64,000 nucleotides of DNA, from the sequence record DRR378314_685; one strand, written 5' to 3'. The position numbers were made by a program, and so were the translations under genes. Below, one piece after another: positions 54,179-57,554 of this stretch; within the stretch, counting starts at the first letter, position 1, and each line of letters starts with the position of its first letter. Under the pieces are notes generated by a model that did not search any database, was not told the origin of the DNA, and worked only from the letters and a program-made list of their open reading frames with translations.

Positions 54179-54244
54179 GATTTTCAATTCCTTCTAGCTT
54201 TCTGTTGATGTCCTTGGCGAGACCATCCCGCCGCCGACACCCTC

Positions 54245-54290
54245 TATCTAGGTCAGAAATTATCGAAAATCAATAAGTTTTTATCGAAAA
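54245..54290 (-). promoter_or_regulatory. Sigma70-like promoter TTGATT-N17-TAGATA with two TTATCGAAAA operator-like boxes
   Basis: -35 at 54273-54268, -10 at 54250-54245; boxes at 54260 and 54281. Confidence 0.55.
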
Positions 54291-54452
54291 ATAATAAATG
54301 CCAACAAATTCAAGGCACTGTTGTTTGCCGAATATCGATATGGTTGCGCGTTTTTCAAGTCAAGCGATGCCGAATAAACTGGAGAAGAATTCATGCAATG
54401 CATTGTAGCGCTGAATCGATGCGACAAGCGGAACCCGTTCCGTTCGCATGGA

Positions 54453-55991
54453 TCAGGCATGGCCACCCAAATCGAAGCTGAGCTGAACCGACTTGGCAGG
54501 TAAGGCGTGGATACGTCCAGACTTCGACATGCCCGCCCTGCGCGCCATATTCGGCCGTGCCGGAACACCAAATGGCAACGCATGCGAACTTTGCTCAGGG
54601 AACAGGTGACGGCGAGCCGCCCTGGCCGCAGCCATATGATCAACCATTCTCATCGGATAGGATTGGCCCAGGACAATGCCCTTCTCGGCGAGCAGACTTT
54701 TTGGGGCATCCCAAGGCGAGTGGATCAGCGCGTCCGGCAGGTCAGCGATTTCAGGTATCCATTTTCGAATGAAGGTGCCCTCAGGATCGCGCATCTGGGA
54801 GTGTCGTACCGGATTCGGAATTTGCCCGACGGGGTGTGAGCTGATGCCGACAACTTTCCGTGCGTTTCCATAGAACAGGGCCCCGTCAAAATCGGTGGAG
54901 AGCCGCGCCAGATGCTGGGCAGGCGCAGTCGGATCCAGCCAGAGATGGCACGTCGCGAATGACAGAAGCAGGCTGCGCAACCCTGATTCGAGGCGTCCGG
55001 TGGCCTGAAGGCAGCGCATGCTGGCATCAAGAAGTGGGAAACCTGTGCGGCCACTGGCCCAGGCAGCCAGGCGGGGATCTGCCGCGCCGACCATTTCACG
55101 TTTGAAAATATCATTTGGAAGACCGGCATTCTCAACCTGCTCATGACGTGGTTTGGCGGTCAGCAGGCGAGACCTATGTTCCAGATTCTCAACAAATGCG
55201 TCGAGCGAGGCGGCAAACGTCTCATCCCCATCGGATAGAAGGGCACCTTTGGCACGCATCGCCGCCTGCCAGACCTCGCGATCCGATAATGTGCCCCAGT
55301 TCAGGTAGGGGGACAGGCCGGAGGCTGATGATTCCCGGTCCGTAACAGAGAGATTGCGTTTGGAGGCCGGCCGTCCGCGACCTGCCAGATATTGGCGCAG
55401 CTGAAGCACACCATTGGTGCGGCCTCCAGTCTTGCGGCCTGCACATGCGTCGTCATCCAATCCGTAATCTGATGCGACCGGCCAGTCTTCCGACACCATA
55501 TCCGGCGTGTCCAAGTTTTCCGGTGCATTGAGACGTGGCTGGCGCATGTAGTGCCGGAAAGCGGTTTCCGACTCTCCCGGAGTTATTGGCATCGCACGCC
55601 TTACGGCCTGCTCGCGCAATGGGATTCCGGCTTTCATGGCCCAGCTGCGGACGTGCTGAACGCGTTCCGTCTCTTCCGGATCGTGACTTGCCGCATGGAA
55701 GTGGAGGGAGGCGATCCCGTACTGGGTGTGAATTTGCGACAGGACTTCGGCTGCGTTGCCGGATCTCAGGCACAACTTGCTTCCGCGTTTGCGCAGGGCA
55801 CCGTCGAGATCTGCAAGGGATTCCAGAAGAAAGTCGAATTGGCGGCCGGATGTGTCTGGGCGATGCCAATGCCGGGTGTCAAAAATGTAGAGGGGCAGGA
55901 CCTGCCCGCCTGATGCGCAGGCGGCCACAAGGGCTGCGTGATCATGCACCCGCAAGTCTCGTCTGAACCAGATGACATGTAAATCGTTCAT
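54453..55991 (-). CDS. Photolyase/cryptochrome-fold protein, degenerate
   Basis: WFRRDLRVHDH.AL, SGLSPYL.WG, GRTGFPLLDASMR, DPEG.FIRKWIPE. Confidence 0.88.
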   Translation of the reverse strand: MNDLHVIWFRRDLRVHDHAALVAACASGGQVLPLYIFDTRHWHRPDTSGRQFDFLLESLADLDGALRKRGSKLCLRSGNAAEVLSQIHTQYGIASLHFHAASHDPEETERVQHVRSWAMKAGIPLREQAVRRAMPITPGESETAFRHYMRQPRLNAPENLDTPDMVSEDWPVASDYGLDDDACAGRKTGGRTNGVLQLRQYLAGRGRPASKRNLSVTDRESSASGLSPYLNWGTLSDREVWQAAMRAKGALLSDGDETFAASLDAFVENLEHRSRLLTAKPRHEQVENAGLPNDIFKREMVGAADPRLAAWASGRTGFPLLDASMRCLQATGRLESGLRSLLLSFATCHLWLDPTAPAQHLARLSTDFDGALFYGNARKVVGISSHPVGQIPNPVRHSQMRDPEGTFIRKWIPEIADLPDALIHSPWDAPKSLLAEKGIVLGQSYPMRMVDHMAAARAARRHLFPEQSSHALPFGVPARPNMARRAGMSKSGRIHALPAKSVQLSFDLGGHA

Positions 55992-55992
55992 G

Positions 55993-56007
55993 GAACAAAT
56001 ATAGAAC
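55993..56007 (-). promoter_or_regulatory. Alphaproteobacterial LexA (SOS) box GTTC-N7-GTTC
   Basis: Perfect GAACaaatataGAAC on +; overlaps predicted -10; 1 nt from the ATG. Confidence 0.88.
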
Positions 56008-56120
56008 ATTGTTCCTCTTTGTCCAATCTTTTCGGCGCATGCGCTAATTCATTGCGAAACCGAAACAAATTCAACTTCTGGTTTCTTGCGGGTCAATGGT
56101 AAAGTTCGTCTTTACCATTT

Positions 56121-57554
56121 ATGGGAGCTGAGGGAGTTACTGCGCGGGATCGTTTCCCGCTGCATCTGTTTGATAATCTTGCTGAACCGAAGCCCGACCC
56201 GCGATTGGCGGAGGATGCGGCCGAGGCCTTCCCAGCAAGATTTCTTGGCATGTCTGCCAAGACCGGTATGGCTACTGATCAGGCCAAACTGCTTCGACAT
56301 TTGCTGGCAGTGTCCGGAGTCTGCGGACTTTGTGCGCCTGGTTGGTTGCTATCGATTTTTGGAGCCGTGGGGATTGGCGTATTCGCGTTGGTGATTCTGT
56401 ATCGGCTCGGCCTGGTCCTGTTCGGCCCGAGTTCCGTTCATCTCCTGACCAATCCCGCATCGCTGTCGCTGCTCCTGCCGACCTACACGATCCTGATTGC
56501 TCTCAAGGACGAGGCGGCATGCATGCCGCAATTGGCAAACAGTCTGATGTCGTTGGAATATCCCCGGCGCCTGCTGGATGTGAAGCTTCTTTTGGAGGAG
56601 GGGGATCATGATACGAAAAACGCGATCCATGAGCAGATATGGCCCGAGGGAACTGAGCTTTTGGTGCTGCCGCCCGGTCAGCCGCAGACGAAACCGCGTG
56701 CGCTGAACTACGGCCTGGCGCGGGCCAGGGGAGCATTTGTCACGGTCTATGATGCGGAGGATCGTCCGAACCCCGGTCAGCTGATGGAGGCGGCCCGCCG
56801 GTTCGCCTGGGACCCGCAGCTTGCTTGTGTGCAGGCGCCACTATCGGGCAATGTGCGTGGCGGCGGCTGGTTGTCGCGCCATTGGGCGCTGGAATACGCA
56901 ATCCAATTCAACCGCATGATGCCGGCGCTGGCCCGGTTGCGTATGCCGATCCCACTTGGCGGAACCAGCAATCATTTTCGCAAGGCGGCACTTCAGGCGG
57001 TTGGCGGCTGGGACGCCTGGAATGTGACCGAAGACGCCGATCTCGGACTGCGTTTCGCAAGATTGGGGAAGAAGGTTGATGTTATTGCGCCGCCGACTGT
57101 CGAAACCCCACCTCAACAGCTCGATGTATGGGTCGGTCAGCGATCCCGCTGGTTGAAGGGGTTCATCCAGACCTGGTTCGTTCTGATGCGGTATCCATCC
57201 ACGGCCATAAAGGAGATGGGCGTTCTGGGGTTCATCTCGATGCAATTGACCCTCGGCGCATCGATCTTGTCGGCACTTGTCCATCTGCCTTGGCTTGTCT
57301 GGTGCGCGGTTTGCCTCTTGGTGCCGGACGCAAGTATAGGTTCGGTCAGCTTGGGCTTGTTGGCAGCGTCCTATGCTGTTGGCGTGATTGCGGCGCTGAC
57401 TGTACCGACGTCGTCTTTTGCGGTCCGGCTGCGGGATATCCTGACTATCCCTTTTTATTGGCCTCTTCAGTTCTTCGCTATGATGCGCGCGCTTTACAGC
57501 CTGTCGCGGCGACCGCATTTCTGGGTGAAGACGCCACACGATATGGACGCCTGA
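56121..57554 (+). CDS. Membrane-bound processive-type glycosyltransferase family 2
   Basis: TKPRALN, YDAED, GGTSNHFR, VTEDADLG, QRSRWLKG, W.KT.H; start uncertain. Confidence 0.9.
   Translation: MGAEGVTARDRFPLHLFDNLAEPKPDPRLAEDAAEAFPARFLGMSAKTGMATDQAKLLRHLLAVSGVCGLCAPGWLLSIFGAVGIGVFALVILYRLGLVLFGPSSVHLLTNPASLSLLLPTYTILIALKDEAACMPQLANSLMSLEYPRRLLDVKLLLEEGDHDTKNAIHEQIWPEGTELLVLPPGQPQTKPRALNYGLARARGAFVTVYDAEDRPNPGQLMEAARRFAWDPQLACVQAPLSGNVRGGGWLSRHWALEYAIQFNRMMPALARLRMPIPLGGTSNHFRKAALQAVGGWDAWNVTEDADLGLRFARLGKKVDVIAPPTVETPPQQLDVWVGQRSRWLKGFIQTWFVLMRYPSTAIKEMGVLGFISMQLTLGASILSALVHLPWLVWCAVCLLVPDASIGSVSLGLLAASYAVGVIAALTVPTSSFAVRLRDILTIPFYWPLQFFAMMRALYSLSRRPHFWVKTPHDMDA

Follow-up and report, generated by a model that had tools for sequence, protein, structure and literature searches.

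A NewCRY-like photolyase-family gene with a LexA-type operator over its promoter and a candidate clamp-binding motif in its C-terminal tail

We analyzed a stretch of 64,000 nucleotides from sequence record DRR378314_685 (hereafter the window), whose minus strand carries a coding sequence (54453..55991) for a NewCRY-like protein of the photolyase family, P0001, with 512 amino acids between the ATG at 55991 and a stop codon at 54453-54455. Read from an upstream ATG, the frame (54453..56009, minus strand) is open over 518 codons, and the 512 codons counted from the second ATG bear out the initial annotation, which had described a frame intact over about 512 codons. Judging from the source names of the closest database proteins, the host genus is probably Hyphomonas. 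The protein is composed of an N-terminal alpha/beta (antenna) domain (residues 6-128; 55608..55976, minus strand), matched by the Pfam family DNA_photolyase (PF00875, 3.7e-35), followed by a flavin adenine dinucleotide (FAD)-binding helical domain (residues 302-461; 54609..55088, minus strand), matched by FAD_binding_7 (PF03441, 1.4e-42), whose pocket appears remodelled in the alignment to Escherichia coli Phr. With this two-domain architecture, it is a member of the photolyase/cryptochrome superfamily. An AlphaFold2 model built on a 51-sequence alignment reached a predicted local distance difference test (pLDDT) score of 88.6 and a predicted template modelling (pTM) score of 0.86, and the best Foldseek matches were to class III photolyase 4u63, 6kii, 1np7 and cryptochromes, with template modelling (TM) scores of 0.76-0.81 and 24-27% identity. 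By sequence, the closest solved relatives were 6kii and plant cryptochromes (E about 1e-41 to 1e-36). All specific NCBIfam models for photolyases and cryptochromes scored far under their cut-offs, that of the E. coli-type Phr (PRK10674) reaching 142 bits against the 506 required.

Upstream of the gene, both direct reading and a consensus scan found a -35-like hexamer TTGGAC (56021..56026, minus strand), which is followed by 17 nucleotides, by TATATT, by the six nucleotides TGTTCC and by the probable start codon ATG (55989..55991, minus strand). The -10 element TATATT (55998-56003) lies within the spacer of a LexA-type SOS box, GTTCTATATTTGTTC (55993..56007, minus strand), and the ATG thus comes 6 nucleotides after the -10 and a single nucleotide after the box. 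In the consensus scan, this promoter ranked first within 54200-56300 with 10 of 12 matches, in a region where 5 promoter-like sites were found compared to a mean of 1.0 in shuffled sequences. The layout reported earlier, TTGGAC-N17-TATATT-N6-ATG with GTTC-N7-GTTC over the -10, can therefore be read directly from the DNA. GTTCN7GTTC is the SOS box of Caulobacter (da Rocha et al. 2008, as listed in Table 1 of PMC9578287), a review of the SOS response in which photolyase is unmentioned.

By comparing loci, we found the identical box layout in all ten fetched loci of the genus and in none of 20 loci from other genera of the order; the box was also present in two Rhodobacterales loci and in three contigs of metagenome-assembled genomes (MAGs). 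Fourteen aligned loci share a TTG-type -35, 17 nucleotides, GTTC, TATNTT, TGTTC[CT] and ATG, while their flanks have diverged and the 13 bases that separate the -35 from the box show no conservation. The TTG-type -35 stands at the same distance as in the window in 10 of the 14 loci and one base off in the others, whereas GTTC[CT]ATG is invariant in all 14, as are the 6 nucleotides from the -10 to the ATG. As a side observation, one contig filed as an Acidobacteriota MAG (L004) carries a gene and promoter near-identical to those of a Hyphomonadaceae MAG (L005), and is probably mis-binned.

This layout leaves no room for a leader. No conserved Shine-Dalgarno sequence was found across the 14 aligned loci, and the N-terminus obtained from the ATG at 55991 agrees with the N-termini of family members in other genera. 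We rejected a start at the upstream ATG at 56009 (giving 'MFYICS...'), since its codons are those of the operator, some relatives have TTG as the first codon, and the Shine-Dalgarno-like GAGGA is unconserved. Of the 121 database proteins, 43 begin with 'MFY[IVFL]CSM', which is the translated operator; this shows that the box is widespread and that gene callers place the start too early. The resemblance has a simple form, as the repeat unit of the operator resembles TGTTC with an 11-bp period, and its first GTTC is preceded by an [AT]TG that looks like a start codon (55993-56009 in the window). From the comparison of the 14 loci, we consider it fairly likely that translation begins on a leaderless transcript.

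Genome-wide statements refer here to G001, the nearest genome, with 69% of sampled words in common, and not to the window's own assembly. In G001, boxes with a T-rich spacer stand directly before lexA, recN, comM/YifB, a UDG-linked radical-SAM gene and a gene for a Y-family polymerase. An operator within the promoter in the window and operators at core SOS genes in G001 are what one finds in a LexA regulon, and control of the gene by LexA is highly probable on these sequence grounds. The initial annotation had proposed a gene that is both under SOS control and leaderless; the comparison speaks for both proposals, in that each of the 14 loci has kept the leaderless layout together with the operator that covers the -10. 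The gene is thus like the known alphaproteobacterial SOS regulon in its direct-repeat operator and in the type of box found before the SOS genes of G001, and differs in that the operator wraps the -10 of a promoter without room for a leader.

Three further boxes of G001 (L086, L105 and L089) precede small open reading frames (ORFs): a 129-amino-acid ORF of glyoxalase/VOC fold with two overlapping boxes, a 134-amino-acid SnoaL-like ORF, and an ORF without family match that lies behind four GAAC repeats. By the boxes before them, these three ORFs are candidates for uncharacterised SOS genes.

At its other end, the protein carries a disordered basic tail (residues 475-512; 54456..54569, minus strand; pLDDT below 50 for residues 475-498, 500-502 and 504-512), within which QLSFDL (residues 503-508; 54468..54485, minus strand), a candidate motif for binding the beta clamp, is followed by GGHA and the stop codon. 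Throughout the family, the last 40-50 residues are variable and basic, with Q-L-[SAD]-[LF]-[DP]-[LF] near the end, and Q503 is invariant in a 51-sequence alignment (A1). Within their last 45 residues, 101 of 121 proteins contain the strict motif, compared to 1.0 on average and 4 at most over 200 shuffles, and a loose pattern is found in 117 of 121. The canonical clamp-binding motif (CBM) is Q-phi-x-[L/M]-[F/L] or Q-phi-x-[L/M]-x-[F/L] according to the available part of a 2024 review of the clamp (PMC11139829). It is matched by 63 of the 121 proteins, and a further 41, including the window protein, differ from it by a phenylalanine at position 4 only (shuffles gave 1.3 and 0.2, respectively); Q-aliphatic-x-[L/M/F]-x-[F/L] is thus carried by 104 of 121 relatives. 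In a second set, collected from a gammaproteobacterial member, 108 of the 120 proteins among the matches listed have a canonical motif, and most end in QLSLF, QLTLF or QLKLF. Marine relatives typically end in ...DDxQLSLF at the extreme C-terminus.

At genome loci, the tail motif is present in Alpha-, Beta- and Gammaproteobacteria, Cyanobacteria, Chloroflexota, Planctomycetota, Verrucomicrobiota and others. None of the 8 Bacteroidota members has it, nor does any of the 8 photolyases examined from outside the family. Given this distribution among the sequences, the tail motif is a hallmark of the family. The initial annotation had likened QLSFDL to clamp-binding motifs: the presence of the motif and its conservation across phyla, in a tail that is otherwise variable and disordered, uphold this likeness, whereas position 4 is not canonical. 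Compared with known beta-clamp ligands, the window protein is alike in its invariant glutamine, in hydrophobic residues at positions 2, 4 and 6, and in the location of the motif near the end of a region that the model leaves disordered; moreover, relatives carry exact QLSLF, QLDLF, QLSLPL and QLSLDL. It differs in its phenylalanine at position 4 and its basic upstream flank. Binding of the tail to the DnaN clamp is, in our estimate, rather likely. The clamp review (PMC11139829) names no protein of the photolyase family, with 0 occurrences of 'photolyase'.

Some further observations concern such motifs. In G001, an Hda-like protein begins with ...SQLSLGF, and the Y-family polymerase preceded by an SOS box (L099) contains RQLDLL internally, some 60 residues from its C-terminus; this polymerase scores under the cut-offs of all NCBIfam Pol IV models. 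Many tails of the genus (P0020, P0023-P0031 and others) hold a second motif, Q[AG]DLPF, 25-35 residues before QLSFDL, and the window tail retains only ...HALPF... at that place. The Bacteroidota loci without the motif are L058, L060, L062, L063, L065 and L077-L079, and some of them adjoin FeS-BCP and SDR genes.

In order to locate the changes in the pocket, 116 family proteins were aligned with E. coli Phr (K-12 locus L003) and with the canonical photolyase of G001; residues are numbered, and their roles given, as for E. coli Phr. Every substitution that had been named initially (GRLESG, LEHR, DP and NARK) is real in this alignment. First, GWMHNR of E. coli Phr is replaced by GRLESG (54981-54998, minus strand), that is W338R, N341S and R342G. 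Second, W277 is a histidine (in LEHR) and W359 a proline (in LDP; P354, 54930-54932, minus strand). Third, the segment F373..GNARK (54855-54875, minus strand) brings N378F and, where E. coli Phr reads GGWQW, W382A and W384K. In addition, we observed E274N, M345S and W306V, and an alanine in place of Y222. The tryptophan triad of class I/III cyclobutane pyrimidine dimer (CPD) photolyases, W382-W359-W306 in E. coli numbering, reads A, P and V in the window protein. Likewise, the residues that contact the CPD and N5 in these enzymes (E274, W277, N341, M345, W384 and N378) read N, H, S, S, K and F. By contrast with these losses, D372, D374, R344 and S235/S238 are retained. Set beside class I/III CPD photolyases such as E. 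coli Phr and PhrA of Agrobacterium tumefaciens (4u63), the window protein is therefore alike in fold (TM 0.77-0.81), in both Pfam domains and in D372, D374 and R344, but it is only 24-26% identical, is without the tryptophan triad, E274, N341, M345 and W384, has F for N378 and a 50-residue disordered tail, and scores far below the NCBIfam cut-offs.

A word-indexed search returned 816 relatives among 8000 scored candidates, of which the best are 98% and 69% identical to the window protein and the remainder at most 58%. The main family is marked by the signature GWLNFRMRA ... HLWLDW ... TDFEPGIHYPQAQMQSG. Outside the window's own subclade (n=102), R replaces E274 in 96 proteins, F replaces N341 in 74, H replaces N378 in 100 and A or V replaces W382 in 93; M stands at W384, and W277, W338 and W359 are retained, with H378 and W338 each conserved in 100 of 102. 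This picture corresponds to NewCRY, a subfamily defined by a sequence-similarity network (Emmerich et al. 2020, NAR, PMC7736829). According to the available part of that paper, NewCRY makes up 8% of the superfamily, was earlier annotated as CPD photolyase and is without E274 and N341, and its representative VcCry2 (VC1392) binds FAD. The window protein is likewise a two-domain bacterial member of the superfamily that has lost E274 and N341, and its family shares with NewCRY the former annotation as CPD photolyase and a co-occurrence with the photolyase NewPHL. Table S1 of the same paper, in which the window protein itself is absent, labels both VC1392 and HNE_3082 of H. neptunium 'classA', and HNE_3082, with 536 amino acids, has the length and name of our family member P0052, which is 44% identical to the window protein. 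The window protein thus fits NewCRY by sequence, through its relative HNE_3082 rather than through direct comparison with VcCry2; a second protein search, which started from a gammaproteobacterial member and was aimed at VcCry2, gave no Vibrio protein among the 120 matches listed. Clamp, DnaN, replication, SOS and LexA each have 0 occurrences in the main text of PMC7736829.

The loss of W382, W384, E274, N341, M345 and N378 hence marks the whole NewCRY subfamily, and most of the apparent degeneracy is not private to the gene of the window. The initial annotation had presented the gene as a degenerate photolyase, and this stands for the residue losses themselves but not for their being peculiar to it. 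The main branch of NewCRY keeps a different and strongly conserved pocket, and its members may be active flavoproteins. When 151 genomes of the order were searched with a profile, the scores were bimodal, with family-level matches at 524-870 bits and canonical photolyases at about 230-290 bits; the former were found in 34 of the 151 genomes, including 11 of 11 from the window's genus.

Plant and animal cryptochromes signal through their C-terminal extensions, and a protein of this family could likewise be a light- or redox-sensing signalling protein of the cryptochrome type, whose C-terminal motif would bind a partner other than the clamp or serve as a degradation tag. As published, the function of NewCRY is unknown, and the authors themselves suggest light signalling (available part of PMC7736829); the basic flank of the motif, unlike the known CBM flanks, would also agree with such a role. 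The clamp consensus is found, however, in hundreds of relatives, most proteins of the second set terminate exactly in QLSLF, and a triple cry1 cry2 phr knockout of V. cholerae is reported to have kept its blue-light transcriptome (available part of PMC5241685). Moreover, SOS control suggests that the cue is DNA damage and not light. We therefore regard a signalling protein as improbable.

Beyond the changes common to NewCRY, a second layer of losses is confined to a few members. In a quick maximum-likelihood tree (IQ-TREE, SH-aLRT support only), the window protein falls in a fully supported clade of 15 rows whose stem is long (0.58) and which is surrounded by other proteins of the genus. It is only in this fast-evolving subclade of 14-15 members that W338, W359, W277 and H378 are additionally lost, which sets it apart from the rest of NewCRY. 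Among the other 102 family proteins, 131 alignment columns reach a conservation of at least 90%; in the 14 proteins of the subclade, 113 of these columns still hold the family residue and 18 have changed. The changed columns cluster at E. coli indices 218-236, 274, 338, 345, 359, 370-378, 397, 403 and 98-104; they surround the flavin and substrate pocket and include two acidic positions of the N-terminal domain, the E/E at index 103/104 (antenna domain) conserved in the family, and most of them are variable within the subclade. Position 338, for example, is R6 Q3 H2 S1 T1 and position 277 is Q6 E2 L2 H1 K1. A few residues are newly fixed, namely P at W359 (14/14), F at H378 (13/14) and R at Q383 (13/14). 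By these alignments, positions for cofactor, substrate and antenna are lost or relaxed in the subclade, with scaffold, tail and operator retained.

The long stem and long branches of the subclade, together with the relaxed constraint at former pocket positions, could indicate that the gene is decaying and that its box and motif are inherited leftovers without present function. Between the window and G001, we counted 20 synonymous and 12 non-synonymous codon differences, that is a ratio of non-synonymous to synonymous substitution rates (dN/dS) of 0.19, and deeper pairs gave about 0.14-0.16. These values are not near 1, the level that had been put forward beforehand as the sign of a decaying gene. 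In addition, all 14 subclade proteins (49-98% identity) have an unbroken frame, the 113 of 131 family-conserved columns are kept, and every locus fetched from the genus has retained operator, start and motif. Pieces of the gene (54520-55047, 55085-55413 and 55461-55960) are also covered by contigs of three runs' metatranscriptome assemblies, which is weak evidence. Decay is accordingly very improbable. Since dN/dS is 0.19 and 2 of the 12 replacements between the window and G001 fall on former pocket positions, the gene appears to be under purifying selection overall, with its old active site largely released from constraint.

Purifying selection on a full fold would also be expected of an enzyme that still performs light-driven repair with an unconventional pocket or electron path, on single-stranded DNA (ssDNA) or on lesions other than CPDs, and which tail and SOS control deliver to gaps. 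The retained D372, D374, R344 and S-x-L-S phosphate motif, the family genes that lie beside NewPHL or other photolyase genes in other taxa, and the very strongly conserved pocket of the main family, which suits an enzyme and is in keeping with the FAD bound by VcCry2 (available part of PMC7736829), all agree with such a repair flavoenzyme. In the subclade, however, the pocket positions are mostly variable instead of forming a new fixed set, they differ even between the window protein and its 98% identical relative, the antenna-site columns are relaxed, and the tryptophan chain is gone (W382A, W359P and W306V). We thus consider a repair flavoenzyme unlikely in the window's subclade, though less so than a signalling protein, and the alignment suggests with somewhat better than even chances that photorepair was lost there.

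The family gene of other genera overlaps with the end of the gene upstream of it. This upstream gene is NewPHL, whose product combines an FAD-binding domain at the N-terminus with a C-terminal GFF motif. NewPHL is the CPD photolyase specific for ssDNA that was described in Emmerich 2020, and is the same as SPL of Xu 2021. In 23 of 111 loci, it adjoins the family gene. Of 70 close neighbours on the same strand, 17 belong to the photolyase family, of which 12 are NewPHL-like, 2 are two-domain proteins and 3 are of the FeS-BCP type. Overlapping two-gene operons of NewPHL and a NewCRY-like gene occur in many Alphaproteobacteria (L006, L014, L017, L019, L021, L027, L029, L149-L157 and others). A single one of 23 NewPHL-NewCRY operons has a perfect LexA site upstream; we discarded it as probably due to chance, the site lying 294 nucleotides away with a G+C-rich spacer. 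G001 carries the orthologue of the window gene and a separate canonical photolyase, and NewPHL was not found in this genome. It seems that the window's genus lost its NewPHL partner and placed the gene under LexA, and that one subclade gave up the pocket. Separately, we noticed that in two other genomes of the genus (G008 and G055) the NewCRY-like gene is the single photolyase-type match at E <= 1e-60, and the canonical photolyase may be missing there.

Starting from the fold, the family placement, the residue changes, the purifying selection and the conservation of motif and operator, all of which are established by the comparisons above, we favour the view that the gene probably encodes a damage-induced, clamp-docking NewCRY protein that in the window's subclade would probably not be photochemical. 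In such a scheme, a sigma-70-type promoter with its -10 inside the LexA operator would drive a lone gene, whose transcript probably starts at or beside the ATG, and LexA would keep it off until DNA damage yields RecA filaments. The protein would then attach through its tail to DnaN clamps that remain at gaps or stalled forks. Members of the main family may serve at these sites as flavoproteins for UV (ultraviolet)-damaged, probably single-stranded, DNA; in the window's subclade, the protein would most likely perform no photorepair and might instead be a clamp-bound binder of lesions or DNA, or a competitor for the clamp pocket. The idea of a non-catalytic, SOS-induced clamp client, already advanced in the initial annotation, survives in this form, with the correction that most of the degeneracy is normal for NewCRY and that only the second layer of losses is special to the lineage. 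ImuB, a catalytically dead Y-family polymerase that acts as an SOS-induced clamp-binding adaptor, had been offered as an analogy. The parallel holds for the logic of function, namely an enzyme scaffold without catalytic residues, SOS-induced and with a clamp motif, which for the window protein are predictions; it does not extend to homology, as ImuB is unrelated to the window protein, and the role of ImuB has been shown experimentally.

Several observations weigh against this reading. First, the bare pattern GTTC-N7-GTTC is not above chance in the window (2 against 1.58 expected) and numbers 96 in G001 against 101 in the reversed control; the box gains its weight because it is conserved across loci and placed before SOS genes in G001. 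Even so, recA of G001 has boxes with one mismatch only. Second, family genes of other genera have no LexA-type box in front of them (72 of 78 loci and 20 of 20 loci), nor was one found before 22 of the 23 NewPHL operons; likewise, a search for other LexA boxes (CTGT-N8-ACAG, GAAC-N4-GTTC and the cyanobacterial type) upstream of family genes of other phyla found none in 78 loci. The absence of the box from other genera and from NewPHL operons makes SOS control a trait of the lineage and not of the family. In addition, VcCry2 was reported to be induced by blue light and not by the SOS response (available part of PMC5241685). Third, position 4 of QLSFDL is F, where the canonical CBM has L or M, and the 25 residues before the motif are strongly basic in the family (median net charge +6), whereas the flanks of known CBMs are mostly acidic (available part of PMC11139829). 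Fourth, D372, D374, R344 and the LS(P) phosphate motif are kept, and the protein may by this sign still bind FAD and perform some photochemistry. Fifth, one RNA contig spans 56014-56272 and none bridges 55960-56014; the contigs from RNA libraries thus reveal no 5' end and are uninformative on start site, level and induction.

A wider and more tentative proposal, which we hold to be possible at best, is that the whole NewCRY branch consists of clients of the sliding clamp at primer ends beside UV-damaged ssDNA gaps, and that the window's subclade is an SOS-rewired, pocketless form acting by occupancy. DnaN would tether NewCRY where excision repair cannot work, often alongside the ssDNA photolyase NewPHL. 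One genus would have rewired the gene into the SOS regulon as a leaderless transcript, and the window's subclade would then have given up the photochemical pocket, its protein acting by occupancy, for example by gating the access of polymerases to the clamp at stalled forks. If true, this would for the first time connect the photolyase/cryptochrome superfamily to the replisome. The conserved clamp-type tail gives NewCRY, a large and widespread subfamily without an assigned function, a concrete and cheaply testable hypothesis; it also suggests a site of action beside lesions in ssDNA gaps, which would explain the frequent pairing with NewPHL. The window's lineage could serve as a natural experiment, in which LexA control was followed by loss of the pocket with scaffold, tail and operator kept, and the subclade would separate a possible non-catalytic, clamp-directed role from photorepair. 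In the literature searched, with subscription-only papers outside its scope, neither a clamp motif nor LexA control has been described for a photolyase-family gene in Alphaproteobacteria.

In the window, the gene is surrounded by a divergent family-2 glycosyltransferase gene, a small ORF without family match and genes for a histidine phosphatase and a 1-Cys peroxiredoxin, and further by those for a YmdB-like protein and an acyl-CoA dehydrogenase. As none of these neighbours is a DNA-repair gene, the gene stands alone.

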